A stretch of 64,000 bases of DNA from Oscillospiraceae bacterium (GCA_015065165.1 SVQU01000009.1:66-64065); one strand, 5' to 3'. Positions 15 to 64,000 are shown, numbered from the stretch's first letter. Numbers and translations are program-made. The notes: generated from the sequence alone by a model not told the origin.

Positions 15-89
15 TGGCAGCGGAATAGGGATTCGAACCCCAACAAACAGAGTCAGAGTCTGTCGTGCTAACCGTTACACAATTCCGCT
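15..89 (-). tRNA. tRNA-Gln (anticodon CUG)
   Basis: The reverse complement folds by eye into a 75-nt cloverleaf. Acceptor stem AGCGGAA/TTCCGCT. Anticodon stem ACAGA/TCTGT with 7-nt loop C-T-CTG-A-C. T arm TGGGG-TTCGAAT-CCCTA. Discriminator G plus encoded CCA. Confidence 0.8.
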
Positions 90-7964: not shown

Positions 7965-8153
7965 ACGCTACGCTACGCTTCGCTATCGCCCGAAAACACT
8001 TATTTTCGGGCGGATTTGCGCCTTCGTGCGCTTAACCCTAAAAATGCAAGCATTTTCAGGGAACCCATTTACTCGCGCCGAATTTGTGCATAAATGTCCA
8101 AATTCGCGAAGGCGTAAGGTATATTATCCAAGGCACGTGTCCTTGGATAATAT
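7965..8153 (-). repeat. structured interspersed repeat, copy D (family 'S')
   Basis: On the minus strand it shows the same ordered blocks as copies A-C. These are hairpin H0 (8121-8153), ATACCTTA, helix P1 (8107-8114 / 8019-8026), hairpin P2 (8079-8106), GCGCGAG box, hairpin CCCTGAAAAT..ATTTTTAGGG (8036-8061), hairpin H4 (7987-8012) and tail ..AGCGAAGCGTAGCG. The tail ends at 7965, directly against the rny stop codon (7962-7964). Confidence 0.7.
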
Positions 8154-8226
8154 GAATTTTAATTGTATTTGCTTTATTGTATTTTTTGTTGATGCTTTTA
8201 ACGGTATCAGCGATTAGATTGGAGTA

Positions 8227-12293: not shown

Positions 12294-12312
12294 TTTTATT
12301 GGTTTTGGTTTT

Positions 12313-12448
12313 AAAAAAGGGGGACTTTTTAAAAAAAGTCCCCCTTTTAAATTCCCCCAAAAAATTTTTATCCCCGAAAATGAAATTTTCGGCAGTAAAG
12401 GTTTTTGGGGATTTCAAAAGGGGTGTTTTTTCAAAAACACCCCTTTTG
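12313..12448. repeat. palindromic intergenic repeat cluster (family 'E') acting as bidirectional terminators
   Basis: Three A/T-flanked hairpins: GGGGGAC..GTCCCCC (12319-12344), CCCCGAAAATGAAATTTTCGG (12372-12392) and AAAAGGGGTG..CACCCCTTTT (12417-12448). The last two modules recur at 16591-16637 and, inverted, at 21761-21828. Confidence 0.65.
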
Positions 12449-12460
12449 GTCATTTATTTT

Positions 12461-27666: not shown

Positions 27667-27713
27667 AGTAAAACTCCTTAGTGGTTATTAAAAGCAAATT
27701 TATGTATTTTGGT

Positions 27714-27904
27714 ATTTTTCGGCGACCTGTGATTTACCCCACAAAATTTCATTTTGCGGGGGCCCCGTCGCGTCGAAAAATACACCTTAGAGTGCTGAGG
27801 ATTCGGACAACGAGCGTTAGCGAGGCGCACGAATCCTGCGCGAGCGAACGGCACTCACAAAAGACAATCAAAAACAAGTGTTTTTGATTGAGAGCGTAAG
27901 CGAC
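27714..27904 (+). repeat. structured interspersed repeat, copy A (family 'S')
   Basis: H0 arms ATTTTTCGGCGAC/GTCGCGTCGAAAAAT enclose a CCCCACAAAAT..ATTTTGCGGGG module. Then follow ACACCTTAGAG, P1 (27790-27795/27851-27856), P2 (27798-27805/27830-27837), GCGCGAGCGAACGG, H4 (27865-27890) and tail AGAGCGTAAGCGAC. The tail ends at 27904, directly against the argS stop codon (27905-27907, opposite strand). Confidence 0.7.
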
Positions 27905-29599
27905 TTAAATTTCCTCTGTTCTTCTCATACCAAGCAAATCAAGGCATCTGCCCAAAATGTTGCGGGTTGCGGAGGTAAGAGCAAGACGGAACTGTTCGGT
28001 TTCACCGTCCGAGCCGAGAATTCTGCAATTGTGATAGAACTGGTTATAAAGTGTACAAACACCAAGAGCAAAACGGGAAATATGGCTGGGCTCGTAATCA
28101 TTTGCGGCACGCTCTACAACGTTTTCAAATTCGCAAAGCTTACGGATAAGCTCGGTTTCTTCACCAACGGGGGTGTAGGATTTCCAATCGCCCTCCATAT
28201 TGCCGCGGCGCAAAACGCTGGCGGCACGTGCATAGGTATATTGAACGTAAGGACCTGTGTTGCCCTCGAAGGAAAGTGCGCTTTCCCAGGTGAAGTTGGT
28301 ATCCTTAATACGGCTGTTGGAAAGTGCACCGAAGATAACCGCGCCCAAGCCTACCGCCTCGGCGATATCCTTGTTGTCCTCTCCTGCCTTCTTTTCGTCG
28401 ATAATAGCCAATGCCTTTGCAACGGCTTCGTCGAAAACGTCGTTAAGCAAAATAATGTTGCCTGTACGGGATGCAAGCTTTTCGCCCCCGAAGCTCATTG
28501 TGCCATAGGGGATGTGAACCAAATCCTTTGCCCATTCCTTGCCCATAAGCTCGGTAACCTTAAACCATTGGGCAAAGTGCAAGGACTGACCTGCGCTGGT
28601 AACGTAAGCGCAAATATCAAAATTATAGGTGTTGTATCTATAGTTTGCCGCTGCAATATCGCGGGTGGGATAAAGGGTACTGCCGTCGCGCTTAAGGATA
28701 AGTGCGGGAGGCATATTATATTCCGAAAGGTCAACTATAGATGCGCCGTCGTCGATTTTAAGAAGCTCTTTTTCTCTAAGCTCATCTACAATAGCGGGCA
28801 TTTTGTCGGTATAAAGGCTTTCGCCGTCCCAAACGTCAAAATCAATGCCCAAGCGTTTGTAGGTCTGGGTATATTCGCGAAGGGAAATATCCTTAAACAA
28901 TTGCCATATTTCAAGATATTCCTTGTTGCCGTTTTCAAGTTCGCGGAAGGCGGCACGGGCTTGGTCGTTAAGAGAGGGGTCTTTTTCCGCCTCCTTGCCG
29001 AACATAACGTAAATACGTTCAAGCTCCTTAATGCCCTCTTTTTCAAGCTGTTCCTTGCTTGACCACTTTTTAAAAGCCACAATCTGCTTGCCGTTTTGTG
29101 TGCCCCAGTCGCCAAGATAGTTTAAAGCTACGGTTTTATAACCGCAGAATTTATAAATGTTTCTAACGGCGTTACCGATAACGGTTGTGCCCAAATGTCC
29201 CAAATGAAAACGCTTTGCGATGTTGGGGGAGGAGAAGTCCAAAACAATGGTTTTGTTTTCTCCCATTTTGGTAAGGTTGGGATATTCGTCGGAAAGCAAG
29301 CCTTCCAAATCCGAAATATATTTGTCCCCCGCAAAGAAGAAGTTAAGATAAGGGCCTGTGGGTGCAATTTTTTCTATACCGTCAACAGCGTTGAATCTTT
29401 CTGCAAGCTCGGCAGAAATCATCGCGGGATTACCCCTTAAAAGCTTTGAAAGCCTAAAGCAGGGCAATGCAAGGTCGCCAAGCTTGGAATCTGCAGGGGT
29501 TTCAAGAAAATCCGCCACCTCGTCTGCCGAAAGGGATGCGCCCTTGGAAGCAACATATTCCGCAACGGTTTCGCATATAATTGTTTTTATATCCGCCAT
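27905..29599 (-). CDS. argS: arginine--tRNA ligase
   Basis: The track ORF is 568 aa. I prefer the second ATG ('MADIKTII...', 29599) because GGAGA lies 5 nt upstream. Class I motifs 'SSPNIAKRFHLGHLGTT' (HIGH-like) and a DALR anticodon-binding C-terminus. Confidence 0.93.
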   Translation of the reverse strand: MADIKTIICETVAEYVASKGASLSADEVADFLETPADSKLGDLALPCFRLSKLLRGNPAMISAELAERFNAVDGIEKIAPTGPYLNFFFAGDKYISDLEGLLSDEYPNLTKMGENKTIVLDFSSPNIAKRFHLGHLGTTVIGNAVRNIYKFCGYKTVALNYLGDWGTQNGKQIVAFKKWSSKEQLEKEGIKELERIYVMFGKEAEKDPSLNDQARAAFRELENGNKEYLEIWQLFKDISLREYTQTYKRLGIDFDVWDGESLYTDKMPAIVDELREKELLKIDDGASIVDLSEYNMPPALILKRDGSTLYPTRDIAAANYRYNTYNFDICAYVTSAGQSLHFAQWFKVTELMGKEWAKDLVHIPYGTMSFGGEKLASRTGNIILLNDVFDEAVAKALAIIDEKKAGEDNKDIAEAVGLGAVIFGALSNSRIKDTNFTWESALSFEGNTGPYVQYTYARAASVLRRGNMEGDWKSYTPVGEETELIRKLCEFENVVERAANDYEPSHISRFALGVCTLYNQFYHNCRILGSDGETEQFRLALTSATRNILGRCLDLLGMRRTEEI

Positions 29600-29727
29600 A
29601 TTTATCTCCATGTTGAGTTATTTCTGATTATTCAAATAATATACCATATTTTCACATTAAAATCAAGAGAAAACCGCCGATTTTCCGTTGATTTTAAACC
29701 GTATTTTTCAATTAAGGGGGAGTAATA

Positions 29728-46960: not shown

Positions 46961-49645
46961 ATGAACTTGGCAAAACGTTTAATTGCTTTGGCTGTTGTTG
47001 CGGTTTTGCTTGCTTCCTCTTGCATTTTTGTAAGTGCGGCAATGCTTACCTCCAAGGGCGGTCATAACGTAACCAGCGACGGCGCGGTAGTTTATAAAAA
47101 ATTCAGCGCTGCCGGTGCACATACCGAAGATGCAACCGTGCTTGAATTTAACCCTAAAAACGGCTATATTCCCGTTGCATTCGACGGAGCACCCACCAGC
47201 GTTGCTTCTATCCCCACCCAATACAGCACCGCTGTTAATACTTACGGCTATGAGGTTGCAGGCGTAATCAACGCAGGCTACTTCACCATGTCCACCAGCA
47301 CTCTCGAGGGTATGGTTATCACCGACGGCAAGCTTGTTGCCGCTACCAGAGGTGCGTCTACCATTGTTGCTTTCGGTAACAACGGCAGTATGGATATCGT
47401 TACCACCCAGCCTAAATATACCGTTGGTATCAACGGCAAAAGCCTCGAAAACCCCATTTGGTTCTTCAATAAGGAATATAAGGATGCAGGCTCTACCGAA
47501 AGAGGCGCTTATATGTTCTATTATGACTACAGCGCAAACGCAAAGACCTCTTATTCCGAATCCGGTACCGAAGTTCTTTTCGAAAAGCTTGACAATTCCG
47601 AGCTTTCTTACGGCGAAACCTTGGTTGGTAGAGTTGTAAGCAAAAAGACCTCTACCACAGGCAGCACCACTATCGCTAAAAACCAGTTCGTTCTTTTTGC
47701 AAAGAACGGCTCTACCTATGTAAACGAGCTTAACTCTCTTGCTGTGGGCAATAAGGTTACCATTAACATTACCGAAACCAACGCAGGCGCAGTTACCGTT
47801 ATGAACAACGCAAACAGCGTTCTTAACAATATCGACTATCTTGTTAAAGACGGTCAGAACTACACCATCGGCAAAACCTCTGTGGGCGGACATAACCCCA
47901 CAACCACCTATGCACGTTGGACTGCATACGGCGTTAAGGCAGACGGCACCTACGTATTCCTTACCACCGAAGGCGGCTCTACCGGTGTAAGCTCCCGTTC
48001 TCTTACTCTCAGAAACGTTGCCGATATCCTTATCGAGCTCGGCTGTGTAACCGCAGTTCGTCTTGACGGCGGCGGAAGTACAGGTATGTACGTTTCCAAC
48101 ACAGGCTCCGGCAACGCAGGCTGGGTTATGACGGGTCAGCGTTCTGTTGCAGATACCATTCTCGTTGTTAAGAAATCCAGTATGCACGATGCAACTCTTG
48201 AAACTAAGTTGAAATCTGCAATCGCCACCGCAAAGCAGACCGCAGGCTCTAACGCAGGTATTCTTAAAGCAATTTCCGAAGCAGAAGCAATGATTGGCAC
48301 CAACGCTACCGAAGGTCAGCTTCGTAAGGCTATCATCAGTCTTTCTCCCAAGGCAATGCTCGGCGCGGCTCTCGCAAAGTGCGACGTTTTGAACATCGGT
48401 GAATATACCGAAACCGACCTTGCGGCTCTCCGTACCGTTTACGATGCAGCAAAGGCTGTTTACAATTCCGATTCTGCTACCGATGCTCAATATTCCGCAC
48501 AGACCACCAAGGTTTACTCGGCATTGGATAAGAGCGCGAACGTTATTCTTTCCGCAGGCGCGGCTTACACCACCACCGCACCCAACCGCGGCGACGGACA
48601 CGACGACGACAAATATCGTCTTACCGACGGCACAAAGGGCGGCTTGGACCTTTCTCAGTACAGCTATTCCGGCTGGAACGTAAATTCTCTTTCCAACCGT
48701 ACCGTTAATATCGACGTAGACCTTGGCGCAGTTCAGTCCTCCAACACCTTTACCGTTTATATGGCGGCAGGTATGTGGGGTATCGGCGCACCCTCTGCTA
48801 CCTTAAGCGTTTACACCTCTACCGACGGTGTTAACTACACCTCTCTCGTAGGTACTTCTACCACCAGAACCTCTGTGGGCTCTGCTGTTGTGGGCTCCGA
48901 AACCTGCAATACCTATACCTACACCGTTAAGAGCAACTCCAACGTAAGCGCACGTTACGTTAGATTCGCCGTTAAGAACAGCGTTAACTTCACCTGGATT
49001 GACGAGGTTGAGGTTTCCCGCACCAACGGCAACGCAAGTAACGTAGTTACCAATTACACCAAGATTCAGAGCTTCAATACCAAGATTACCGCGGGCTCTT
49101 CCACCATCTTCACCCCCGATATGGGCGCGCTCACTCAGAGCAATGCAAACCACACCTGGTCCAGCAATATTATTTGCGAGCTTCAGTCCGACGGCAGCTA
49201 CGTTGTAGTTGAAAACGTAAGCTGGCATGCAGACAGCAACAAGACTATCACTCTTAAGAGCAACCAGATTATGATTTGTGCTCACAGCGATCCTACCGTT
49301 GCGGGAAGTGCTGCAAACGCATCCAACTTGGGCGCGGCGCAGGTTGGTCAGGTTCTTAAGGTTTACGGTATCGACCTTGCAAACAAAACAATCAGCGCGG
49401 CTGCATACGTTCAGTTTGAAAATCCCGCCGAGCCCGAACCCGATTATTACCTTGGCGATATTAACAACAACGGCAGCTTCGAGGCTATGGACTACAACCT
49501 TCTTAAGCGTGCATATTTCGGCGTTTACGGGTTGGCTATCGAAGCAGCGGGCGACCTTAACGGCAACGGCGAAATCGATGCAATCGACTATGCTATGCTT
49601 AAGCGCGCATACTTCGGCGTGTACCCCCTCGATTGGATTAACTAA
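46961..49645 (+). CDS. secreted phosphodiester glycosidase (NAGPA/DUF2233-like) with discoidin-like module and dockerin
   Basis: 894-aa ORF with AAGGAG RBS and a signal peptide. 'AGVINAGYF...GMVITDGKLV' and 'VTAVRLDGGGSTGMYV' fit the phosphodiester-glycosidase fold. It has a discoidin-like module ('ARYVRFAVKN..WIDEVEV'), a module shared with the GDPD paralogs, and C-terminal dockerin repeats 'GDINNNGSFEAMDYNLLKRAYFGVY' / 'GDLNGNGEIDAIDYAMLKRAYFGVY'. Confidence 0.7.
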   Translation: MNLAKRLIALAVVAVLLASSCIFVSAAMLTSKGGHNVTSDGAVVYKKFSAAGAHTEDATVLEFNPKNGYIPVAFDGAPTSVASIPTQYSTAVNTYGYEVAGVINAGYFTMSTSTLEGMVITDGKLVAATRGASTIVAFGNNGSMDIVTTQPKYTVGINGKSLENPIWFFNKEYKDAGSTERGAYMFYYDYSANAKTSYSESGTEVLFEKLDNSELSYGETLVGRVVSKKTSTTGSTTIAKNQFVLFAKNGSTYVNELNSLAVGNKVTINITETNAGAVTVMNNANSVLNNIDYLVKDGQNYTIGKTSVGGHNPTTTYARWTAYGVKADGTYVFLTTEGGSTGVSSRSLTLRNVADILIELGCVTAVRLDGGGSTGMYVSNTGSGNAGWVMTGQRSVADTILVVKKSSMHDATLETKLKSAIATAKQTAGSNAGILKAISEAEAMIGTNATEGQLRKAIISLSPKAMLGAALAKCDVLNIGEYTETDLAALRTVYDAAKAVYNSDSATDAQYSAQTTKVYSALDKSANVILSAGAAYTTTAPNRGDGHDDDKYRLTDGTKGGLDLSQYSYSGWNVNSLSNRTVNIDVDLGAVQSSNTFTVYMAAGMWGIGAPSATLSVYTSTDGVNYTSLVGTSTTRTSVGSAVVGSETCNTYTYTVKSNSNVSARYVRFAVKNSVNFTWIDEVEVSRTNGNASNVVTNYTKIQSFNTKITAGSSTIFTPDMGALTQSNANHTWSSNIICELQSDGSYVVVENVSWHADSNKTITLKSNQIMICAHSDPTVAGSAANASNLGAAQVGQVLKVYGIDLANKTISAAAYVQFENPAEPEPDYYLGDINNNGSFEAMDYNLLKRAYFGVYGLAIEAAGDLNGNGEIDAIDYAMLKRAYFGVYPLDWIN

Positions 49646-49666: not shown

Positions 49667-49697
49667 AAAGGACGGAGGCTTTCCCTCTGTCCTTTTT
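49667..49697 (+). terminator. rho-independent terminator
   Basis: AAAAGGACGGAGG-CTTTC-CCTCTGTCCTTTTT. Confidence 0.75.
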
Positions 49698-49728
49698 CTG
49701 TTTTGAAAATATTGTAAGGAAACCTAAT

Positions 49729-53686: not shown

Positions 53687-56038
53687 ATGAAAAAATCCAT
53701 CAGATTGCTTTCGGTTTTGTTGGCTGCCGTTATGATTACCGCCGTAATACCCTTCGGCGCAATGGCAACCACCACCGCTTTGAAAAACAAAACAGTTCTT
53801 GCCTTTGGCGATAGCCTTACGGCATTGGGCAACCCCACCTACGTAGGATACCTTTCGGATTTGTTGGGTATCAACGTTATTAACGCGGGTGTCGGCGGTA
53901 ATATGACCGCCCACGGTAAAGCGCGTTTCCAAGCCGACGTTCTCGATAAGAATCCCGACGTGGTTCTTATGTGCTTCGGTATGAACGACCAAGCCTGCAG
54001 CCTTCCTTCGGGCTATTGCTGGTCCTCTCCCGAGGTTTACCGTGCGGATATGACCTATTTCATCACCGAGCTTCAAAAGACCGGTTGCGACGTAATCCTT
54101 ATCACTCCCAACCCTGTTTGTGATGAAACCGGTTATTACGTTGCTCCCGAAGACTATACCTATAACTATCCCGGTTCGTTGGATAAGTTTGTAAAGGTTA
54201 TGCGCGAGCTTGCCCTTGAATTCGATTGCACTCTCATTGATATGCACCAAGAATTTATGACGGTTAAGGCAAGTAATATTGCTACCTATAAGAGCTATTA
54301 CGCCCCCAACGACGGTATTCACCAAAGCCAGCTTGGCAGACAGTTCTGGGCAGAAAAGGTTAACGCTCATCTTAACGCTGTTTATGATAACGTAAACAAA
54401 AAGACCATAACCGTTAACTGCGTTGATAAAAACAATAACGTTATTAAAACCTATAGCTATGTTGGCGCAAACGGTGCAAACGTTGTAATTGCGCCCCCCG
54501 CTATTCCCGCCTTCTCTACCGATAGTACGGCTGTGTCGGCTAAATATGGTACAGACAGCACCGTTACCTTCACTTTCGAGGCTAAAATCACTCCTTTGTT
54601 AGAGGCTGTTGAAAATATCGACGAATCCAAATACAGCGCAACCGCACTTTCTCTCATTCGCAAGGAATATAACACCGCGAAGAGCCTTCTTGCCGCTGAA
54701 AATATCGATTTTGAAGCGTTGGAAAAATGCGCTCAGGTTCTTGAATATTACCTTTCGGTAAACGGCGACGGTACCCTTGTTATCTCCTTGGGTAAGAGCT
54801 ATACCAGACCTGAACCCAACTATTATAAATGGGACAGCGCAACCGGCGGCCCCAGCACCGAGCTTAACGAGATGTATTCCGACGACTTTATTCGTCTTAC
54901 CGACGGTAAGAAGGGTATAGTTCCTGCCAATACAAGCGCATATTCCGCATGGCAGAGCAACGCCGATATCGTTGTGGATCTTGGCGAGGAAACTGCTTCC
55001 AACGTTTACCGCGCTTATTTCGCTTCCGGAATGTGGGGCGTTGCCGCACCTGCCGATATGAAGATTGCTTATTCCAACGATAAGACCAATTGGACTTATA
55101 TCGAAAAGGCATTTGTTAAGACCGATGTTGTTTCGGGCGGCGCCGACGCGTGGAGCTCTACCGAATATTCGGTTACCGCAGATTCCGAAATCACTGCAAG
55201 ATATATCAAGTTCGAAATCACCAAAACAGGTTCTTTTGTATGGATGGACGAGGTTGAGGTTGCGGTTAAGGGCAACGTTGAAGAAAAGTTTAACCTTGCT
55301 TACAACAAAACCTATGAAAAATCGCCTTTGTTCAGACAAAGCAATATAACTTGGGATTGGGACGAAACCTTCCCCGAGGCATATCCCGACGAGGGCGGAA
55401 TAACCCTTACCGACGGCAAGACCAATTCCATTAACGACCTTGGCGACGGCGCTTGGGTTGGCTTTAACTCCAAGACACCTATTCTCGAAACCAACTATAA
55501 CTACATCCGTGTTGACCTTGGCGACGTTTACGGCTTGACACAGCTTGACCTCCACGTGGGCAGCAACGGTCTTGGTTACGGTATTACCGCGCCCAACGTT
55601 GAATTCTTCGTTTCCGAGGACGGCGAGACCTACACCTCTGTGGGAACTGCCAACGGCGCAAACGGCGGCGCATATACCGAGCTTCTTTCGGTTGAATGTG
55701 AGGTTAACGCCCGTTACGTAGAAGCTCGTATTACCAGCATAGGCTGGGCGTTCGTTTCTGAAATTTACGCTTATGGCGGAGATTTGTTTGACGATAAAGA
55801 GCCTACTCCCGACCCCGACCCCGATCCCGATCCCGATCCCGATCCCGTTGTTATGAAGGGCGATATTAACGGCAACGAGGAAATCGATGCGGTTGACTAT
55901 GCAATGCTTAAACGCGCATATTATGGTATTTACAGCGTGGATGTGAAGGTTGGCGATATTAACGGCAATGAAGAAATCGATTCTGTAGACTACTCGATGC
56001 TTAAACGCGCATATTACGGTATCTATCAAATTCAGTAA
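53687..56038 (+). CDS. secreted SGNH/GDSL hydrolase with two discoidin-like modules and dockerin
   Basis: 783-aa ORF with a signal peptide. SGNH blocks 'VLAFGDSLT' (I), 'NAGVGGN' (II), 'MCFGMNDQ' (III) and 'NDGIHQS' (V). Discoidin-like modules ('ARYIKFEITK..WMDEVEV', 'ARYVEARITS..FVSEIYAY'). (PD)n linker. Dockerin repeats 'GDINGNEEID(A/S)VDY(A/S)MLKRAYYGIY'. Confidence 0.8.
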   Translation: MKKSIRLLSVLLAAVMITAVIPFGAMATTTALKNKTVLAFGDSLTALGNPTYVGYLSDLLGINVINAGVGGNMTAHGKARFQADVLDKNPDVVLMCFGMNDQACSLPSGYCWSSPEVYRADMTYFITELQKTGCDVILITPNPVCDETGYYVAPEDYTYNYPGSLDKFVKVMRELALEFDCTLIDMHQEFMTVKASNIATYKSYYAPNDGIHQSQLGRQFWAEKVNAHLNAVYDNVNKKTITVNCVDKNNNVIKTYSYVGANGANVVIAPPAIPAFSTDSTAVSAKYGTDSTVTFTFEAKITPLLEAVENIDESKYSATALSLIRKEYNTAKSLLAAENIDFEALEKCAQVLEYYLSVNGDGTLVISLGKSYTRPEPNYYKWDSATGGPSTELNEMYSDDFIRLTDGKKGIVPANTSAYSAWQSNADIVVDLGEETASNVYRAYFASGMWGVAAPADMKIAYSNDKTNWTYIEKAFVKTDVVSGGADAWSSTEYSVTADSEITARYIKFEITKTGSFVWMDEVEVAVKGNVEEKFNLAYNKTYEKSPLFRQSNITWDWDETFPEAYPDEGGITLTDGKTNSINDLGDGAWVGFNSKTPILETNYNYIRVDLGDVYGLTQLDLHVGSNGLGYGITAPNVEFFVSEDGETYTSVGTANGANGGAYTELLSVECEVNARYVEARITSIGWAFVSEIYAYGGDLFDDKEPTPDPDPDPDPDPDPVVMKGDINGNEEIDAVDYAMLKRAYYGIYSVDVKVGDINGNEEIDSVDYSMLKRAYYGIYQIQ

Positions 56039-56043
56039 AAAAC

Positions 56044-56231
56044 ATATTTTCCAAGGACAGGCGCCTTGGAAAATATACCTATGACGTTCGCGAGCTGTAA
56101 AGGGGGACCCTGAAAATCGGAAGATTTTTAGGGCATTACAGCGAGGTGCGAACGCACGAACGTCAAAAGGAAAAACGTAGTTTTTCGTCAAATCAATCAA
56201 AATGCTCGCATTTTGATTGAGAGCGTAGCGA
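56044..56231 (+). repeat. structured interspersed repeat, copy C (family 'S')
   Basis: H0 ATATTTTCCAAGG-ACAGGCG-CCTTGGAAAATAT (56044-56076), then ATACCTATG. P1 is 56083-56090/56157-56164. GCTGTAA/TTACAGC encloses CCCTGAAAAT..ATTTTTAGGG (56108-56133). H4 is 56194-56219 and the tail AGAGCGTAGCGA ends at 56231. Confidence 0.7.
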
Positions 56232-56290
56232 TAAACGCGCATATTACGGTATCTATCAAATTCAGTAAAAAACATATTTTCCAAGGACAG
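56232..56290 (+). pseudogene. orphan duplicate of the last 11 codons + stop + 3' flank of the 53687-56038 CDS
   Basis: The 59 bp at 56232-56290 are identical, base for base, to 56002-56060 ('TAAACGCGCATATTACGGTATCTATCAAATTCAGTAAAAAACATATTTTCCAAGGACAG'). Confidence 0.9.
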
Positions 56291-56317
56291 AGGCTAAACC
56301 CTCTGTCCTTTTGTTTT
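56283..56317 (+). terminator. rho-independent terminator (probably the original terminator of the SGNH gene)
   Basis: AAGGACAGAGG-CTAAAC-CCTCTGTCCTT followed by TTGTTTT. Confidence 0.7.
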
Positions 56318-56448
56318 GATACCGTTTGATTAAAGCCGATTTTGTGATATGTAAAAATACAGGACAGAACGTTTGGTTTTTGGGGTATAGCACAATTTTT
56401 TGGTGTGTTAATTGTATAAAGTGCCAATGCGAAAATGTCAAAAATCCA

Positions 56449-56477
56449 TTGAAAAGATAAAAGATTTTTGGTATAAT
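56449..56477 (+). promoter_or_regulatory. sigma-A promoter candidate
   Basis: TTGAAA (56449-56454), 17-nt spacer, TATAAT (56472-56477). Confidence 0.55.
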
Positions 56478-56518
56478 GATAAGCGCACATGCTATAAAAA
56501 CTCACAAAGGAGAAAATT

Positions 56519-59500
56519 ATGAAACGTACATTAAGCTTTATCGTTACGTTGGCGATGTTGCTTTCACTGTTCACCGTTTTTGCGGTTACACCCGCTTCTG
56601 CGGCAACAGTTATCGGCAATAATTCGCCCGCTATCCGTGCAAACGTTGGCGAGACAATCACTCTTTCCAACTATTCGGTTACCTTCGATGGCGATACTAC
56701 CGCTACCTCCAACGTTACTTGGAAGAACGGCAGCAGCACCATCACCACCTTTAAGCCTACCGCTAAAGGCGTAACCACTCTTACCGCTACCAGCGGCAGC
56801 AAAACCAAAAACATTTACGTTGTTGCAAAGAATTCTTCCGATACCGAATATGTTCTTTATGAAGCAACAATGTCTAACTTCAGCTCTGTTTCTGCTCTTA
56901 CAAGCGCAGGTTGGACCTTTACCAACTCCGCCAGAGCTTCCAAGGGCAGCGACGGCGCGTTGGTTCTCGGCGTTACCGGCAAATGGGATGCTACCAGCGC
57001 ATATCTTCCTTCCTGGTTGGGTGATTTCGGTAACTATAAGTTTTCCGCGAACGTAAAGTTCAGCGCCTTTGCCGAAAGCGATAAATCCCGTTGGTTCTCG
57101 CTTATGACACGTACGGAAAACCGTACCTGCACCGCCCACTATACTCACGCGGCTTTCCGTGGCAACAATACCGCCTCTAACGGTATCGAGTTTGCTGAAA
57201 GATACGCTACTGATTCCGGAAGCGATTGGAACGTTGCTCTTAAAACCCCCGGTACTTATACCGACCTTACCGATGCTTACCGCGATTTCAGCATTCTCTC
57301 TGTAGATAACACCTTCCGTGTGGATATCGCAGGCAAGCAGATGATTTACGTTGCTCCCTCCTCCTACCTCTCTTTGTCTAAAAAGCAGGTTTACAAGGGA
57401 CATCTCGGTTTCCAGGCTTCGGGCTGTACCATCGCAATAAAGAGCGTTAAGATCACTCTTGAGGATACCGTTCCCGAAGAAATTATCGATACAAAACTTA
57501 TTTATAACAGCTATCACGATGCGGATAACCTCGTTAACCCCATCGCTAATATTCAGAGAGTTTCCAGCGTTACCGCGGCAAACCTCGATAAGCTTTCGGT
57601 TGCATATATCGACCTTACCACCGGTGTAAATGCTCAGACCGCATTTAAAACCTGTATAGACAACAAGGTTGTACCTACCTTCTATGCAACCACCACCGCT
57701 CATGCAGATGCGATTATTGCGGCTTCTACCGCGTTGGGCTCTACCGACGCTACCGTTGTTTCCAACAACAAAACCGTTCTTAACCGTATCAGAGTTCACT
57801 CTACCGCTTATCCTATCCGTACAGGTCTTGTTGTGGATATTTCCACCCAGATGGCAGACGGCACCATGACCGATTACGAAGCCGACGAAATCCGTCGCGA
57901 CGTTCGTGCAATTCCCGCAACCTTCATTCTTATCGAAAGCAAATATGCCACCAAGCAGGCGGTTGCCGAGCTTCAGGAAATGGCTCTTGCGGTTTGGGTA
58001 AACGTTACTTCTACCCCCAACACCGATGCATTTAACATCGAAGCTATGAAGGCTATCACCTCCGGCGCAAACGGTCTTGTTTCCAACAGCGCGGCAGGCG
58101 TTTCTTCTCTTATTAAAACCCACATTCAGGCAAGAGCATTCACCCGTACACCTATCACCATCGGTCATAGAGGTAACCCCGGTGTTGCTGCCGAAAACAC
58201 TATCGAAAGCTTCCAGGCTGCTTATGAAAACGGCGGCGACGTTTTCGAAATCGACGTTGAATGTACCAAGGACGGCGTTATCGTTATTCTCCATGACGGT
58301 ACTCTTACCCGTACTACAACCTATACAGGCTCTACCTCTATCAGAAATATGACATGGGCGGAGGCTAAGAAATATCACGTTCTTGACCTTAACGGTAACT
58401 CCACCGGCAAGCCTATCCCCACCTTGAAAGAGGTTCTCGACTGGGCAAAGGGCAAGGATATTAAGATTTTCGTTGAATTTAAGGATAATTCCACCACCTG
58501 CGTAAACGGCACTATGGCTGATATCGTAGAACGCGGTATGACACAGCAGGTTGATATTATCTCCTTTAATACCACCGCACTTAAGCTTGCAAGAACTGCA
58601 GTTCCCGGTATCTCCACAGGTTATCTTAACGGTAACGATATTACCGGTTCTACCTATTCTATGGCTCTTAAGCTCTTCGAAGGCAGAATCGAACCCGCAC
58701 AGCGCGAATGGTCCACCGTTAACTGCGGCAGCTATAACAACCAGGTTACTAACCTTGCGGTTCAGGTTGCTACCGACCGCGGTATGACTATGTGGCCCTG
58801 GACCTATGGCTACAGCAACACCTCTGCTGCATTCTTCGACTGTCCCGACGGTATCACCACCGACAATATGGAAGTTATGAAGGATATGGTTAAGACCGTT
58901 CATGCAAAGAACTTTGTAATGCTTCCCGGTCAGACCTACGGCGGCGGCGCGCTTACCTCCGAAACCTACGGTAACACTCTTACCAGCGTTAGCGCAAACA
59001 ATACAATCGTTTCGGTTGTTGCAGGCGACAGCGTTAAGGTTGAAAACGGCAAGCTTGTTGCTGTTAAAGAAGGTATCTCCACCGTTGTTATGGCGGTTAA
59101 ATCCTGGACCTACCTCGGTAAAGAATATATCGTATACAGCCAGCCCGTTCAGGTAAGAGTAGGCACAGGCGACCCTGCGGTTCTCGAGCCTCTCGTTGAA
59201 ATGGCAAAATCGGCTACCATCAATTCTCTTTCCGAATCTGACCTCGCAACTCTCCGTGAATATTGCGACAAGGCTGTTGCACTTATCAACAGCTCTAACC
59301 CCAAGGAAGCCGAAGTTAAGGCAACCGCAGAAGCATTGAACAATATCATTGCTAAGTTCATCGTTGAAAAATATATCGCTCCTGCTCCCAACTATTATAA
59401 GTGGGACAGCGCAACAGGCGGCCCCAGCACCGAGCTTAACGAAACCTATGTCGACGACGGCGTTCGTCTTGTAGACGGTAAGAAGAGCCATGTTGCAGGT

Positions 59501-60460
59501 AATACCAATGCATATTCCGCATGGCAGAAGACCTCCGACGGCAAGATTGAAATCATTCTCGATTGCAGCAACCCTGCCCAGAGAGATACCTTCAAGGCAT
59601 ATTTCGCCTCTAACAGCATTTGGGGTGTTAAGGCGCCTGCAAATATGGAGGTTTCCTATTCTACCGATAACAAAACCTTTACACAGTTGGGCGGCGCTAC
59701 TCTTACCAAGCGTCAAATTCCCGACGTGGGCGAATTGAGCGACAACGTTTGGAGCCGTTGGGAATACACCGTAAAAGCTCCTTCGGTTGTTACCGCAAGA
59801 TATTATAAGTTCACCATCTATTTCGAGGGCAGCTTCATTTGGATTGATGAAATCGAAGCCGCTAACGAAAGCAGCGATCTTATTTATATTAATAAGGTTA
59901 ACAACAGAATTAATGCAGGCGAAGCGGGTATTTATACCTCCTCCTTCGGCGAATTGAACAAGCAAACCGCAAACAACATTTGGACAGTGAATATCACTGC
60001 AAAATGGGATGCTTCCAAGGATGCGTACGTGGTTAGCAACGTAGCCTTCGGCGACGGCACCGACAAGCCCGTAACTATTGCTTCGGATGAAATTTATATC
60101 GCTGTTCACGAATGGGAATTGAACACTCTTGATGAAATGCCCGTTGTCGGCAGTGCTCATAACTTGAATCTTGCAAAGGTTGCACAGGTTGGCGACGTGG
60201 TTGAATTCTACGGTATCGATACCGATACTTGGGAGTTCGGCCCTGCACCCAGCATTAAGTTTGTAAGCGAATCCAACAAGGGCGACCTCAACGACAACGG
60301 CGAAATCGATGCTGTTGACTACTCCTTGCTGAAGCGTGCATACTTTGGTATCTTTGCCAGTAATAGCAGTGTTTCTGATATTAATGGCAACGGTGAAGTG
60401 GATGCGGTAGACTACTCCTTGCTTAAACGTGCATACTTCGGTATTTACAGCCTTGCATAA
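56519..60460 (+). CDS. secreted multidomain glycerophosphodiester phosphodiesterase (GDPD) with C-terminal dockerin (paralog 2)
   Basis: 1313-aa ORF with the same architecture as 12461-16363; the N-terminal ~130 aa are nearly identical by eye. Canonical GDPD core 'GHRGNPGVAAENTIESFQAAYENGGDVFEIDVECTKDGVIVILHDGTLTRTT'. Discoidin-like module ('ARYYKFTIYF..WIDEIEA'). Dockerin repeats 'GDLNDNGEIDAVDYSLLKRAYFGIF' / 'DINGNGEVDAVDYSLLKRAYFGIY'. Confidence 0.88.
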   Translation: MKRTLSFIVTLAMLLSLFTVFAVTPASAATVIGNNSPAIRANVGETITLSNYSVTFDGDTTATSNVTWKNGSSTITTFKPTAKGVTTLTATSGSKTKNIYVVAKNSSDTEYVLYEATMSNFSSVSALTSAGWTFTNSARASKGSDGALVLGVTGKWDATSAYLPSWLGDFGNYKFSANVKFSAFAESDKSRWFSLMTRTENRTCTAHYTHAAFRGNNTASNGIEFAERYATDSGSDWNVALKTPGTYTDLTDAYRDFSILSVDNTFRVDIAGKQMIYVAPSSYLSLSKKQVYKGHLGFQASGCTIAIKSVKITLEDTVPEEIIDTKLIYNSYHDADNLVNPIANIQRVSSVTAANLDKLSVAYIDLTTGVNAQTAFKTCIDNKVVPTFYATTTAHADAIIAASTALGSTDATVVSNNKTVLNRIRVHSTAYPIRTGLVVDISTQMADGTMTDYEADEIRRDVRAIPATFILIESKYATKQAVAELQEMALAVWVNVTSTPNTDAFNIEAMKAITSGANGLVSNSAAGVSSLIKTHIQARAFTRTPITIGHRGNPGVAAENTIESFQAAYENGGDVFEIDVECTKDGVIVILHDGTLTRTTTYTGSTSIRNMTWAEAKKYHVLDLNGNSTGKPIPTLKEVLDWAKGKDIKIFVEFKDNSTTCVNGTMADIVERGMTQQVDIISFNTTALKLARTAVPGISTGYLNGNDITGSTYSMALKLFEGRIEPAQREWSTVNCGSYNNQVTNLAVQVATDRGMTMWPWTYGYSNTSAAFFDCPDGITTDNMEVMKDMVKTVHAKNFVMLPGQTYGGGALTSETYGNTLTSVSANNTIVSVVAGDSVKVENGKLVAVKEGISTVVMAVKSWTYLGKEYIVYSQPVQVRVGTGDPAVLEPLVEMAKSATINSLSESDLATLREYCDKAVALINSSNPKEAEVKATAEALNNIIAKFIVEKYIAPAPNYYKWDSATGGPSTELNETYVDDGVRLVDGKKSHVAGNTNAYSAWQKTSDGKIEIILDCSNPAQRDTFKAYFASNSIWGVKAPANMEVSYSTDNKTFTQLGGATLTKRQIPDVGELSDNVWSRWEYTVKAPSVVTARYYKFTIYFEGSFIWIDEIEAANESSDLIYINKVNNRINAGEAGIYTSSFGELNKQTANNIWTVNITAKWDASKDAYVVSNVAFGDGTDKPVTIASDEIYIAVHEWELNTLDEMPVVGSAHNLNLAKVAQVGDVVEFYGIDTDTWEFGPAPSIKFVSESNKGDLNDNGEIDAVDYSLLKRAYFGIFASNSSVSDINGNGEVDAVDYSLLKRAYFGIYSLA

Positions 60461-60493
60461 TAGAAAACCGTAAAAGTATAAAATAATATAACC

Positions 60494-60719
60494 ATAAAAG
60501 CCGAGGACACGTGATCCTCCCCGCAAAATGTAATTTTGCGGGGACCCCATTACTCGGCTTTTATACCTTAGAGGTTCGCAAGTTTGGACAAGATGCAAAG
60601 CATCGCGCACAAACTTGGCGCGAGCAACGGACCCTAAAAACGCCCGCGTTTTAAAGGGGTAGTGTCCGAACCTCAAAAAACGCACGAAAATAGGTGTTTT
60701 CGTGCGAGAGCGAAGCGAC
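60494..60719 (+). repeat. structured interspersed repeat, copy B (family 'S')
   Basis: H0 arms ATAAAAGCCGAG/CTCGGCTTTTAT (60494-60564) enclose ACACGTGATCC plus a CCCCGCAAAAT..ATTTTGCGGGG module. Then follow ACCTTAGAG, P1 (60571-60578/60667-60674), P2 (60579-60586/60610-60617), GCGCGAGCAACGG, hairpin ACCCTAAAAAC..GTTTTAAAGGGG, H4 (60681-60706) and tail AGAGCGAAGCGAC ending at 60719. Confidence 0.7.
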
Positions 60720-60722
60720 AAC

Positions 60723-60829
60723 CGTGCATACTTCGGTATCTACAGCCTTGCATAAAAGAAAATCGTAAAAGCATAAAACAAAATAAGTATATAACGATAA
60801 AAGCCGAGGCGTATGTCCTCGGCTTTTAT
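60723..60829 (+). pseudogene. orphan diverged duplicate of the last 10 codons + stop + terminator of the 56519-60460 CDS
   Basis: CGTGCATACTTCGGTATCTACAGCCTTGCATAA (60723-60755) differs at 1 of 33 positions from 60428-60460. The following 3' flank and terminator arms (AAAAGCCGAGG/CCTCGGCTTTT) are also duplicated, with a few substitutions and indels. Confidence 0.8.
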
Positions 60830-61017
60830 AGTTTTACTGACAGAACAAATGTTTCTGCGTCGTGCGCCATATTTTGCGCTTCGATTTTTTCTTGCTGTCT
60901 ATTTCTTGTGGTTTCGAGCAAACAGAGGTGTCCGAATGGGGCGATGGAAAAGCAGAAAACCAAGTATTTTGGCGGTTTTTTTGTACACATTTTGTCTATT
61001 AAAACCAATAAGTAATA

Positions 61018-61138: not shown

Positions 61139-64000
61139 ATGAAGAAGATTATTTCTATTCTTCTTGTTATAGCAATGCTTTCTACCATGTTCACAGCATT
61201 CGTATTTCCCGTTGCTGCGGCAGGTCAGTCTCTTGCTATTAACGCGATCAACCCTTCTGCGATGGCTCCCGGTATTTCTGCAATTTATACGCAGGCATAC
61301 ACCATCGACGGTTATCAGGAAAACGTGGCGTTTTCTCCCGTTTCCGGTAACACCTTTAAAGTAACCGCAAAATCCGGCTACAGCTGGGACGAAACTCAGG
61401 GCGATATTCTCTCCCAAGCACTCGCAATTCCTGCGGGCGGTTTCGTTTGGTCTGTACAGTGGTCCAGCGATTACTCTCTTGACGATGCAATTAAGTTTGC
61501 AAAGTCTTTGGTTGTTGGCGATACCTTTGAGGTTAGCGGCCTCGATATCGCAAACGGCACTTACACCGACGTAGTTCTTACTGCTGTTGCTGCTGACGGC
61601 GGTTATGACACCACCAACAACGTAGCACGCGGCAAAACATATGATGCTGTAGGTTACGGCGGATACACCGCAAACCTTACCGACGGTGTAGCTGCAAGCG
61701 AGCTTACTTATGACAACAATTGGTTTGCTTTCTATAACAACCCCGGCAACGAAGGCATAAACGCTCCCGACGGCGTTGGTACTGTTACCATCGACTTGGG
61801 CGCAGATTATGACCTCAGCGCTGTTAAGGTTAACACCTTTGTTGGCAGCGAATCCGGTATTGTTAAGCCCACCAAGATGGAAGCGTTCGTTGCATCCGCA
61901 ACCGGCGATTTCGTATCTGTTGGTGAATTGGCTTATACCGACAACGGCACCAACGTTCAGTGGGGTGTTGTAAACACCACCGCAAAGAGCGTTCGTTACG
62001 TTAAGGTTGCAGTTACTCTCAACGGCACCTTCGCGTTCATTAACGAAATTGCTGTTATCGGCGAAAAAGCTGCTAACGATACTTATGACACCACCGGCAA
62101 CGTGGCTCTCGGAGCAACTTACGATGCTAAGGGTTATAAGTCCAGCGGCGAATGGCCTTCTGAATATAACGCAAACCTTACCGACGGTAAGGCTGCACAG
62201 GCTCTTTCCTATGATAACAACTGGTTCGGCTTCTGCAAAACCGATGCAGGCGACAACGGTCTTAACGCTCCCGATGGCGTTGGTACCGTAACTCTCGACC
62301 TCGGCAAGAAGTGCGACATCAACTCTATTAAGGTTAACACCTTTGTAGGTAACGAATCCGGTATTGTTGCTCCCGAAAAGATGACCGCTTATATCAGCGA
62401 CACCGCTGACGGCGAGTTCACCTCTCTCGGCGACCTCACTATCGGTACCGGCGCAAATAACGTTGCTTGGGCAACTCTTAACAAGACCGCTTCCGGTCGT
62501 TTCGTTAAGATCGAAGTTACTGTAACCGGCAGCTTCGCGTTCATCAACGAAATTGCAGTTTACGGCGAAGAATCCAAGGAAGTTTCTCCCGAGGATCTTA
62601 TGGGTACTCCCCATGCTAACCCCAACTTCACTATGGACATCACTGCTCCTTCCACCTACAAAGCAGGTGAAGAAGTTGTAGTTACCGTAACCGTTAACAA
62701 CGTTAACGCTTCTACCGGTCTTCAGCACGTACACGGTAAGCTCTATTTCGACCACAACCTCTTCGGCTTCGATGTAGCGCTTAAGGATAAGCAGGAACTT
62801 AAGAATACCTTCCAGGGTTATGAAGAATGGGAAGATATGACCAGACTTCGTACCGATGGTTCCATCTGGTGGGTAGAACTTGACGCTACCACCGCCGGTT
62901 ATGAAGATCCCGATAACCCCGGTTCTTACCTTATCTCTGATGTAACCGAGGACGGTCTTCTCGTATTTAACGTTAAGTTCATCGCTCTTGCCGATGCAAG
63001 CGACGATACTATCGTTTATATCTCCAACGTTACTACCGACGGCAAGAATAACGTATACGGCGACCACTATGCGATGGAAGAACCTTACACTCACACTCCT
63101 TACGTAGGTAACGGTTCTTACGCTACTATCGCATTCAATGCAGATAGCGGCAACGAATCCTCCGAAGTAGTATCTTCCGAGGTTGAATCCTCCGAAGTGG
63201 TTTCTTCTGAAATCGAATCCTCCGAAGTAGTATCTTCCGAAGTAGTATCTTCCGAAGTTGAATCTTCTGAAGTAGTATCTTCCGAAGTAGTATCTTCCGA
63301 GGTTGAATCCTCTGAAGTAGTATCCTCCGAGGTTGAATCCTCTGAAGTAGTTTCTTCCGAAGTTGAATCCTCCGAAGAATCCTCTACTCCCGAAGTTTCC
63401 GAACCCGAAATCACCGACGACAGACCTTTCATCCCCTCTACCCCTGCAGCAACTCCCGGTTACGATACCACCGGTAACGTAGCACTCGGTAAGTCTTATA
63501 ACGAACAGGGCTTTGGTGGCTACACTGCAGGTCTTACCGACGGTTTGGCTGTTCAGGAACTTACCTATGATAACAACTGGTTTGCATTCTGCACCACTGC
63601 AAACGAAAACGGTTATACCAACGCTCCCAACGGTGTAGGCTCTGTTGTTGTTGACCTTGCTAAGGTTTACGACATCAGCTCTATCAAGGTTAACGCTATC
63701 GTTGGCGAAAACGTTGACAGCTCCGGCATTTACGGTCCCGCAAAGATTACTGCTTATATCAGCAACACTCTTAACGGCACCTATAAGCTTCTTGGCGACC
63801 TCACCATCGGTGCAGGCACCAATAACGTAACCTGGGCAACTCTTGACAAGACCGCTTCCGGTCAGTTCGTTAAGCTCGAAGTTGCTCTTAACGGCACCTT
63901 CGCATTTATCAACGAAATCGTTGTAATCGGCGAAGAACCCGCAAGCGTCGATGACCTTATGGGTACACCTGTTGCTAACCCCAACTTCACCATGGACATC
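61139..64000 (+). CDS. scaffoldin-like secreted protein with repeated discoidin + cohesin-like modules (3' end outside window)
   Basis: This ORF is not in the supplied track because it has no stop in the window. My hand translation from ATG 61139 (AAAGGAA RBS) stays open to 64000 (>950 codons). It has signal peptide 'MKKIISILLVIAMLSTMFTAFVFPVAAA'. After a ~130-aa N-terminal region come discoidin-like modules starting about 61606, 62083 and 63463. Cohesin-like segments 'NPNFTMDITAPSTYKAGEEVVVTVTVNNVNA...LYFDHNLFGFDV' start about 62620 and again at 63980. A (SSEVV/SSEVE)n linker is present. It is paralogous to 50303-53542. Confidence 0.8.
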   Translation, partial: MKKIISILLVIAMLSTMFTAFVFPVAAAGQSLAINAINPSAMAPGISAIYTQAYTIDGYQENVAFSPVSGNTFKVTAKSGYSWDETQGDILSQALAIPAGGFVWSVQWSSDYSLDDAIKFAKSLVVGDTFEVSGLDIANGTYTDVVLTAVAADGGYDTTNNVARGKTYDAVGYGGYTANLTDGVAASELTYDNNWFAFYNNPGNEGINAPDGVGTVTIDLGADYDLSAVKVNTFVGSESGIVKPTKMEAFVASATGDFVSVGELAYTDNGTNVQWGVVNTTAKSVRYVKVAVTLNGTFAFINEIAVIGEKAANDTYDTTGNVALGATYDAKGYKSSGEWPSEYNANLTDGKAAQALSYDNNWFGFCKTDAGDNGLNAPDGVGTVTLDLGKKCDINSIKVNTFVGNESGIVAPEKMTAYISDTADGEFTSLGDLTIGTGANNVAWATLNKTASGRFVKIEVTVTGSFAFINEIAVYGEESKEVSPEDLMGTPHANPNFTMDITAPSTYKAGEEVVVTVTVNNVNASTGLQHVHGKLYFDHNLFGFDVALKDKQELKNTFQGYEEWEDMTRLRTDGSIWWVELDATTAGYEDPDNPGSYLISDVTEDGLLVFNVKFIALADASDDTIVYISNVTTDGKNNVYGDHYAMEEPYTHTPYVGNGSYATIAFNADSGNESSEVVSSEVESSEVVSSEIESSEVVSSEVVSSEVESSEVVSSEVVSSEVESSEVVSSEVESSEVVSSEVESSEESSTPEVSEPEITDDRPFIPSTPAATPGYDTTGNVALGKSYNEQGFGGYTAGLTDGLAVQELTYDNNWFAFCTTANENGYTNAPNGVGSVVVDLAKVYDISSIKVNAIVGENVDSSGIYGPAKITAYISNTLNGTYKLLGDLTIGAGTNNVTWATLDKTASGQFVKLEVALNGTFAFINEIVVIGEEPASVDDLMGTPVANPNFTMDI
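63155..63390 (+). repeat. in-frame 15-bp tandem repeat encoding (SSEVV/SSEVE)n linker, ~15 units
   Basis: TCCTCCGAAGTAGTA / TCTTCCGAGGTTGAA units read directly from the sequence. The 104-aa minus-strand ORF 63118-63432 ('TSEDSTSEDTT...') is its mirror image. Confidence 0.85.

Follow-up and report, generated by a model that had tools for sequence, protein, structure and literature searches.

A perfect 59-nucleotide repeat around a small folded element at the end of a dockerin gene contains element sequence

When a small element is flanked by a long, perfect direct repeat, does the repeat record the insertion of the element, or something that happened at the element afterwards? The question is raised by a 64,000-nucleotide stretch of DNA from an Oscillospiraceae bacterium (GCA_015065165.1 SVQU01000009.1:66-64065; hereafter the window), in which the end of a gene for a dockerin-bearing SGNH/GDSL lipase (gene C) is present twice. 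Two copies of a 59-nt segment, 100% identical and offset by 230 nt (coordinates of all features are collected in Table 1), surround one of the four window copies (A to D, found with an nhmmer profile) of what is apparently an undescribed family of small, strongly folded repeats at gene ends in uncultured gut and rumen bacteria, here called S. About 6e-27 pairs of this length are expected by chance in 64 kb. Each 59-mer opens with the final nucleotide of a Leu codon and continues with 11 codons (KRAYYGIYQIQ), the TAA stop codon and 22 nt of 3' flank, one fewer than first counted. The initial annotation, which had recognized the identical 59-mers, took the 171 bp between them as the element and the repeat as an unusually long target duplication, produced at the left arm of a terminator hairpin. 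Our analysis leads to another answer: the repeat holds sequence of S itself, and we tentatively favour, at a probability of roughly 45%, its origin as a secondary local duplication, made by hairpin- and microhomology-mediated template switching at an S copy already located at the stop codon.

An assembly artefact has to be considered first, given that short-read assemblers are able to duplicate repeats. A 530-bp region across the locus is base-for-base the same in five loci encoding an identical protein (L001-L005) and in eight more reached via the next gene (L032-L039), that is, in 13 loci from at least eight samples (JGI and ENA, for example 3300023371, 3300018495 and ERZ27248351) assembled with two pipelines. 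All 13 keep both copies of the 59-mer, and because the region is identical across independent assemblies we conclude that the repeat is not artefactual. The check for strain polymorphism that had been proposed at the outset likewise gave none in these loci, and no empty, solo or deleted allele of the locus was seen among them. An S-free allele of gene C was not found, and the orthologs L006, L007 and L009 (91%, 80% and 68% identity) have different 3' untranslated regions (UTRs) and provide no clean pre-insertion allele. A metagenome scan for the uninterrupted allele returned no match and is given zero weight, a pattern that the window itself contains having gone unmatched as well, although the contigs of the window are records from JGI metagenomes; because that collection lacks the source contigs, its negatives are not read as absence for this organism.

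The next point is the origin of the hairpin at which the first copy of the repeat ends. Downstream of this copy the sequence continues with GCGCCTTGGAAAATAT, which completes a hairpin, P1, with a perfect 13-bp stem (CCTTGGAAAATAT x ATATTTTCCAAGG) and the loop ACAGGCG. This pairing had been described correctly from the start, as hairpin H0; its attribution to the target does not hold up. At another dockerin gene, in another metagenome-assembled genome (MAG), an S copy (L010) is headed by the 17-mer CATATTTTCCAAGGACA and has the same P1 stems, ATATTTTCCAAGGACATGCGCCTTGGAAAATAT, 32 of 33 nt being identical to copy C; there, a separate native terminator follows S and no long repeat is present. Close variants of this P1 are found in copy A and in L018, L022, L025 and L026. 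The left arm ATATTTTCCAAGG thus belongs to P1 of S and is not an arm of the target's terminator. We also considered that P1 might be the target gene's own terminator, with the core alone being mobile, and rejected this: no hairpin is present at the argS site that lacks S (L029), and loci unrelated to each other share conserved P1 loops. Since P1 of S occurs in L010 and in variants elsewhere, the last 17 nt of each 59-mer (CATATTTTCCAAGGACA, then G) are element-borne. Copy C therefore starts inside the first repeat copy (possibly with a residual leader 5 nt further upstream) and measures ~188-193 nt; the link first drawn between duplication and element stands, the 171-bp delimitation does not. 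As the 59-mer holds S sequence, it is neither the footprint of a staggered cut nor the result of integration into an S-free attB.

Past the second copy lies a terminator, AAGGACAGAGG/CCTCTGTCCTT plus T-tract, the sole plus-strand terminator predicted for gene C in a terminator scan; the mRNA of gene C should now read across S and a redundant gene tail before termination. A paralog at 46961-49645 ends with a near-identical terminator, AAGGACGGAGGCTTTCCCTCTGTCCTTTTTCTGTTTTG (49668-49705), and the one beyond the second repeat copy is native, as had been surmised. The right edge of the repeat falls within AAGGACAG, the sole 8-mer common to P1 and the native terminator (chance ~0.015). Homology ends sharply at 59 nt, with no similarity to S beyond (p=0.74), and both junctions are at perfect hairpins, one in the P1 loop and the other 13 nt after the 3' hairpin of S. 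A decayed second S copy after the downstream repeat was rejected at locus C (that same p=0.74) and at locus D, the site of copy D (p=0.19), and is supported only at L021.

These features are consistent with the following scenario. Gene C would originally have ended with YQIQ and its stop codon, a short UTR and the native terminator, and S would have landed between stop codon and terminator, by analogy with L010 and with the L028/L007 pair described below. During replication or repair synthesis, the nascent strand may have quit its template at the hairpin-bounded 3' end of S and found a new pairing site, TAAAC, within the dockerin LKR codons 230 nt further upstream. From there it would have re-copied 59 nt (the gene tail, the stop codon and the next 22 nt, including the left arm of the S P1) until it came off a second time, in the P1 loop, and continued on AAGGACAG, the 8-nt identical stretch within the native terminator. 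An equivalent two-step route would begin with gene end plus S being duplicated in tandem, after which the second S was lost by deletion between the two AAGGACAG repeats. Among the three mechanisms listed in the initial annotation, switching at the hairpin is the one that fits best; integration of a circle needs extra assumptions, and very long staggered cuts are effectively excluded.

This scenario separates the duplication from the insertion of S, and the insertion sites show where the latter takes place. At eight loci (L011, L012, L016, L020, L025, L027 and window copies A and B) the 3' end of S is 0-2 nt from the stop codon of a convergent open reading frame (ORF) of at least 195 aa, and at five further loci such a stop codon is 13-51 nt away; eight of 22 copies at a stop codon corresponds to p < 7e-6 under a generous null of 0.05 per copy. 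In L012 (~2399-2571, minus-strand orientation of the locus), a single S copy fills the gap between two convergent ORFs: the leader starts at the stop codon of a co-directional ORF of 104 aa, and S ends at that of a convergent one of 196 aa. In the window, copy A adjoins the stop codon of rny, encoding RNase Y (6417-7964), and lies upstream of ymdB (8227-9027); the rny-ymdB pair is usually co-transcribed in Firmicutes. Copy B adjoins the stop codon of argS (27905-29611, minus strand). Both genes are intact, RNase Y being full-length and the DALR domain of ArgS being matched to residue 567 of 568. Two comparisons of filled and empty sites are available. The argS-yebC spacer of L029 (91% ArgS ortholog) is 61 nt long and free of S, whereas in the window S starts 1 nt past the native stop codon and no target sequence is duplicated; another species (L020) also has S at this position. 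Similarly, L007 and L028 encode the same C-terminus, YFGTYVIK and stop, but after TAA the empty L007 continues with GAATAAAAAACAG and then its terminator, and the filled L028 (5' junction) with ATACAATAGAAATCAC and P1. S thus settles at the 3' ends of genes, as a rule directly behind the stop codon; it does so in both orientations, and no target sequence is duplicated.

Flanking direct repeats are of course the textbook signature of transposition, and a classical target-site duplication (TSD) from very long staggered cuts would account for the 59-mer at first sight. This repeat, however, carries 17-22 nt of element-borne sequence, repeat lengths in the family are not uniform (33-127 nt), the majority of S copies lack flanking repeats altogether, and none is seen in the filled/empty argS-yebC pair. 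Together with the possibility of an artefact, we consider this explanation to have a negligible probability. A short target duplication, of 3 nt (TAA/TTA) or TA, was also tried: it fits L010, C and the tandem junctions, and fails at convergent copies. No conserved motif precedes the left end of S (the preceding bases vary: CAA, GCT, CGT, TAA, ATT, CGC and so on), and no transposase was seen beside S in the 8-kb loci, a genome-wide search for a partner protein not having been made.

Flank duplications recur in the family, as they had been expected to if the 59-mer is related to S: about five of 30 copies have at their 3' end a duplicate of the 5' flank, alone or extended by the first 0-70 nt of S. 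The layout of locus D, which lies 4.4 kb downstream of C, is the same, with ~100 nt repeated at ~87% identity, through the hairpin; its repeat begins at the same K-R-A-Y codons, and the arms of its terminator hairpin are those of its P1. In L021 the duplication spans ~127 nt, including P1 and ~15 nt of core, with a perfect 36-nt block inside ~60%-identical flanks. The downstream copy has a longer tail, TFSFEQK and stop, and its own terminator, while the gene itself now ends with TFKF; the two copies show differences of synonymous type (AGC/TCT for Ser). In L026 a 66-nt non-genic flank is duplicated with leader, P1 and ATACCT, and different cores follow the two copies; in L016 the duplication is 33 nt long. 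The downstream copy begins exactly at the S 3' terminus in all cases except L016, where it begins 21 nt after it. Long repeats are found at three of four resolvable co-directional gene ends and at none of eight convergent ones (Fisher p=0.018).

Template switching at bacterial hairpins and quasi-palindromes, together with duplication or deletion through microhomology, offers a close parallel to locus C, with its hairpin junctions, its 8-nt microhomology on the right and its templated local insert. Several points nevertheless weigh against our proposal. No allele of gene C that has S but lacks the repeat was found, so that the succession of steps is inferred, as are the microhomology at the left junction and the replicative nature of the process; that microhomology, TAA[A], is hypothetical and assumes that S was followed by TAA as in L010, L015 and L025. 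Duplications at five of some 30 copies are many for random replication error and, affecting about one S copy in six, are more regular than sporadic errors. The S 3' terminus, moreover, always lies at or within 21 nt of one junction, which hints at an element-specific process. The bias towards co-directional gene ends is not predicted by simple slippage. The perfect 33-36-nt blocks of L021 and L016, in flanks of ~60% identity, require gene conversion or a paralogous donor in addition. Finally, a perfect 59-bp repeat with copies 171 bp apart should be prone to deletion, and all 13 loci retain it.

An alternative is that the duplications are driven by the element, S being mobilized as a 5'-extended unit whose defined 3' end was joined at a T/A-rich site, T/TAAAC (joined at the slash), in the gene tail. 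The intermediate could be a read-through transcript ending at the S 3' terminus and reverse-transcribed from a nick, in the manner of target-primed reverse transcription (TPRT), or a rolling-circle (HUH-type) copy of the opposite strand that overran the hairpin terminator; in both variants, homology to the gene end already in place, or to what was left of an earlier S, would resolve the variable 5' end, and the interval would thereby be duplicated. Several properties of S support such a view. The 3' terminus is precise in all copies, whereas the 5' side varies (the leader is present in most, replaced in C and L010, absent in B). The 3' terminal motif is reiterated in copy A, as (AGCGT)x3, and in L013 and L026, and whole 3' modules, a hairpin plus GAGAGCGNAGCGA, occur in tandem with a period of ~46-47 nt in L013, L015, L017, L019, L022, L025 and L026, with constant tails and differing hairpin sequences. 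TTAAA/TAAAC is enriched in the 3' flanks. One and the same 70-120-nt module, R (containing CCTCCCTTTACACAAGGGAGGCTCANCGCGAG), lies upstream of S at four sites of a single genome (L013, L022 and L026, three distinct regions of contig SVRD01000001.1), each time with another core, which suggests composite or modular units. The mosaic cores would fit template switching between RNAs, the gene-attached copy of L021, with its TFKF end and Ser codon differences, is what a paralogous donor would leave, and S, on its reverse strand, has TC as its first bases and a subterminal hairpin at the other end, like Helitron and IS91 ends. On the other hand, no reverse transcriptase, HUH or other partner protein has been identified (again, none was sought genome-wide), the leader is conserved in most copies although it lies upstream of the presumed RNA start, and the Helitron rule of insertion between A and T is not followed. 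Moreover, the downstream repeat at C has S-borne sequence, so the recipient would already have had to contain S or a remnant of it, and the element-driven model is therefore no simpler than local template switching. On balance we regard it as unlikely, while taking it seriously.

A more specific proposition is that S is a bacterial retroelement akin to short interspersed elements (SINEs) or, broadly, an RNA-templated mobile element. Its RNA would be made as the 3' UTR of a neighbouring gene, or antisense to it, would end at GAGAGCGAAGCGA, and would be copied into DNA at nicks beside stop codons; with a read-through mRNA as template, the gene tail would be co-copied and resolved by homology, giving the duplications at C, D and L021. 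Like non-long-terminal-repeat (non-LTR) retroposons and SINEs that use TPRT, S has a precise 3' end, a reiterated terminal motif, a variable 5' end, a structured RNA, T/A-rich 3' junctions and variable, sometimes long flanking duplications. Unlike them, most S copies are free of flanking duplication and the one at C includes element sequence; no reverse transcriptase has been identified for S, none having been sought genome-wide, and SINE-like retroposons are not known from bacteria. We judge this proposition distinctly improbable.

The arrangement of repeat, unique segment and repeat is also the product expected of a single crossover with a circle. In such a Campbell-type event, comparable to the integration of a cis-mobilizable element (CIME), a 230-bp circle made of the right half of P1, the core, GCGA, the gene tail and the left half of P1 would integrate, by homologous or site-specific crossover, into a gene end holding a solo remnant of the S 5' part, with the 59-mers as att-like homology. 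The 13-7-13 geometry of P1 recalls lox and FRT sites, the repeat ends inside the 7-nt spacer, and 'solo' gene ends with leader and hairpin but no core do exist (L007). The circle would, however, have to carry gene C's own tail, and would therefore have to come from a locus already duplicated or aberrantly excised, which leaves the origin unexplained; a circle of 230 bp could not replicate. The end points differ between loci (the P1 loop in C, after the hairpin in D, ~15 nt into the core in L021, after ATACCT in L026), without the fixed crossover core, or the repeats in an empty attB, that typify CIMEs. P1 arms, with 13 distinct right-arm sequences, are conserved in their pairing alone, unlike recombinase binding sites, and the 13 loci contain neither an empty nor a solo allele. 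We find this scarcely probable.

The nature of S itself is part of the explanation that we favour. Across the family S is ~150-250 nt long. An A-rich 5' leader, ATACAATAAAAATCC, is followed by P1, with 13-bp arms and the loop ACAYGYG or, in a long form, a loop with a nested CCCCRCAAAAT hairpin; then come ATACCTWWGA, a core closed by the long-range helix P2 and provided with optional hairpin modules, and a 3' part consisting of a hairpin and the single-stranded motif GAGAGCGAAGCGA(C). The possibility that the leader is a general 3' UTR motif of this genome was rejected, its 43 matches being close to the 41 expected. In the reference genome collection, 18 loci fit a two-anchor pattern, 16 of them in Eubacteriales/Oscillospiraceae MAGs from rumen and gut, and these 16 contain at least 25 further copies, often in head-to-tail clusters (direct arrays in L015, L022 and L026), where entire S units are joined as GCGA-TAA/TGA-ATACAAT; as the pattern was derived from three copies it covers only part of the family, and repeats may be broken or collapsed in MAG assemblies. 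The P2 arms have 19 distinct sequences in 25 copies, with 192 of 200 pairs Watson-Crick. The fold of the S-sense strand is the more stable one in 21 of 25 copies (p=8e-4), GNRA/CUUG tetraloops number 29 on this strand against one on the other, and class I P1 stems have a conserved G·U pair, which is an A·C mismatch on the opposite strand. S thus displays the compensatory covariation and strand-specific signatures by which structured RNAs are generally recognized, and these point to a functional RNA on the S-sense strand, in the leader-to-GCGA direction. No known family accounts for it: at Rfam 15 gathering thresholds S is unmatched across the whole window, the sole match being a tRNA gene (18-89, minus strand); a permissive scan of 55900-60900 gave matches at chance level only (E of at least 1.9); and a group II (class C) intron or a known ribozyme or non-coding RNA is rejected, no curated covariance model matching. 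S was not found in viral contigs, phage records or plasmids, nor did full-text searching of the literature find a description of such an element.

If S is an RNA, then S and the gene tail adjacent to its 3' end might act jointly, as a guide, decoy or template at the gene 3' end, by analogy with transposon-end guide RNAs whose guide is flanking DNA, and the duplication would be kept by selection. Indeed, the S 3' end is beside gene-terminal sequence in nearly all gene-proximal copies (antisense at eight loci, as a sense duplicate at three), the S-sense strand is RNA-like, perfect blocks of 33-59 nt are kept inside diverged surroundings (L021, L016), and the repeat is stable in all assemblies. 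Yet the adjoining sequence is not of one polarity (sense at some copies, antisense at others), nothing but a terminator follows S in L010, L017, L019 and L023, no partner protein is known (with the same limit of search), and patchy identity is equally explained by gene conversion. Nor do the mismatches at locus D (A>C, T>C, T>A, C>T) have the adenine specificity of diversity-generating retroelements (DGRs, with template and variable repeats, TR/VR); a DGR is rejected, the copies at C being identical and the next gene being another dockerin enzyme. A selected joint function seems very unlikely to us.

S can also be compared with established small repeats. Like REP/BIME, ERIC, RUP/BOX/SPRITE and Correia repeats and MITEs (miniature transposable elements with inverted repeats), it is short, non-coding, multi-copy, hairpin-rich and extragenic, is concentrated at gene 3' ends in both orientations, sometimes clustered, and would be co-transcribed with neighbours. 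Unlike them, it has neither terminal inverted repeats nor a fixed-length, target-only repeat at every copy, and its ends are asymmetric (ATACAATAAAAATCC and P1 on one side, a hairpin and GAGAGCGAAGCGA on the other). It is larger and multi-helical, and its helices covary strongly, with GNRA/CUUG loops and a G·U pair specific to one strand; it sits 0-2 nt from stop codons and has recurrent 33-127-nt duplications at flank/element junctions. REP/BIME units, mobilized by RAYT, are imperfect 20-40-nt palindromes with a conserved GTAG head, clustered in alternating orientation, in contrast with the several hairpins and direct arrays of S. Palindrome-associated transposable elements (PATEs) of the IS200/IS605 type and the omega-RNA of TnpB share with S hairpins near both ends, no TSD and an RNA scaffold with its 3' end at variable flank; S differs in having no conserved tetra- or pentanucleotide before the left end and no Rfam match. 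In PATEs, moreover, the orientation to the target is fixed, whereas either end of S may face the stop codon, and neither TnpA nor TnpB was found near S (8-kb loci, not searched genome-wide). With IS91/ISCR and Helitrons, S has in common a reverse strand that starts with TCGCT and has a hairpin ~15 nt from its 3' end plus GGATTTTTATTGTAT, no TSD, reiterated end modules and host sequence that travels along (R+S units, gene-end copies); it differs by lacking their target rules (A next to T, or GTTC/CTTG), by RNA signatures on the opposite strand, and by the Rep/Y2 gene, none being known for S within the same limit of search.

Table 1. Positions in the window of gene C, the repeats, the S copies and associated features
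Feature	Coordinates	Strand	Basis or remark
SGNH/GDSL lipase - F5/8 type C - dockerin gene (gene C), 783 aa, 3' end duplicated	53687..56038	+	ORF list; Pfam Lipase_GDSL_2, F5_F8_type_C, Dockerin_1
Repeat copy 1 (U): 1 nt, 11 codons, TAA, AAAAC, P1 left arm, ACAG	56002..56060	+	
Repeat copy 2 (U'), fused directly to the S 3' terminus	56232..56290	+	
Native intrinsic terminator; left arm overlaps final 8 nt (AAGGACAG) of repeat copy 2	56283..56318	+	terminator scan; paralogous terminator
S copy C, from P1 to terminal motif; AAAAC (56039-56043) replaces the usual leader	56044..56231	+	nhmmer E=1e-33
P1 hairpin of copy C (H0), class II: T-rich left arm, A-rich right arm	56044..56076	+	
Core of copy C within helix P2 (GACGTTCG 56083-56090 / CGAACGTC 56157-56164)	56083..56164	+	
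Hairpin inside copy C core, CCCTGAAAAT..ATTTTTAGGG	56108-56133	+	
3' hairpin of copy C (56194-56219) and conserved terminal motif GAGAGCGTAGCGA (56219-56231)	56194..56231	+	
GDPD-dockerin gene, 1313 aa, 3' end duplicated around copy D	56519..60460	+	
Locus D repeat copy 1: gene end KRAYFGIYSLA and stop, UTR, hairpin left arm	60425..60506	+	87%
S copy D: long-form P1 (60494-60564) with nested hairpin; terminal motif 60706-60719	60494..60719	+	
Locus D repeat copy 2, ending in terminator hairpin ATAAAAGCCGAGG..CCTCGGCTTTTAT (60797-60829)	60720..60829	+	
S copy A: leader 8168-8154, P1 8153-8121, terminal motif with (AGCGT)x3 7987-7965	7965..8168	-	
S copy B: long-form P1 27713-27782; terminal motif 27890-27904	27713..27904	+	

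Other repeats share modules or sites with S. Two dockerin genes of L007 (1100-1150 and 5610-5665) end with TAA, a leader-like AATACAATAAAACAC or AATCCAATCAAACAC and a AAAAGCCGAGG terminator of the ordinary kind, and lack an S core; they represent either 'solo' remnants of leader and hairpin or the source of the S 5' module. Further repeat families lie 3' of dockerin genes in L006 (3560-3780) and L007 (1160-1380, 5660-5900). One is an inverted-repeat element, GGGCGGTCG...GACGCCCGCCCCTAC, enclosing a GGGGTCCCCGAAAAT..TTTTGGGG hairpin module that is also found in S; the unit of another starts with ACCTTAGAGTATATAGGTCGCGAGGGAG, whose first 9 nt are those of the S core, and occurs twice in tandem. 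Short repeats of the type TTCACT(C/T)TTCACTTTTCA, or the complement AGAGAAGAGAG, are found near S sites in several genomes (L013 2464-2502, L022 4822-4860, L026 389-465, and the argS-yebC spacers of L020 and L030). In the window, three consecutive terminator-like hairpins (12260-12460, minus strand) follow a dockerin gene at 12461-16363, and CCGAAAATTTCATTTTCGG, one of the three, is similar to the hairpin nested in long-form P1. Downstream of locus D, a tandem repeat with a 15-nt period (~13 copies, 63127-63407) lies inside a gene starting at ~61140, which different assemblies call at lengths of 976 to 2383 aa, probably through repeat-driven length variation or assembly trouble.

Locus C is of value mainly because it corrects an assumption: flanking repeats, even when long and perfect, need not be target duplications, this one having element sequence inside and ending in microhomology with the native terminator. 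If S is what it appears to be, it would represent a new type of small bacterial repeat element, RNA-like, with neither inverted termini nor TSD. Its position 0-2 nt from stop codons, in either orientation and both at housekeeping genes (rny, argS) and at dockerin genes of the cellulosome type, in a large uncultured gut and rumen clade, would then raise the question of how an element finds the end of an ORF. Annotators of these MAGs would have in S an explanation for contigs that break and 3' UTRs that look unusual time and again. Such elements would also be seen to remodel gene ends, through C-terminal tails that are new (L021), terminators that are displaced and gene tails that are redundant.

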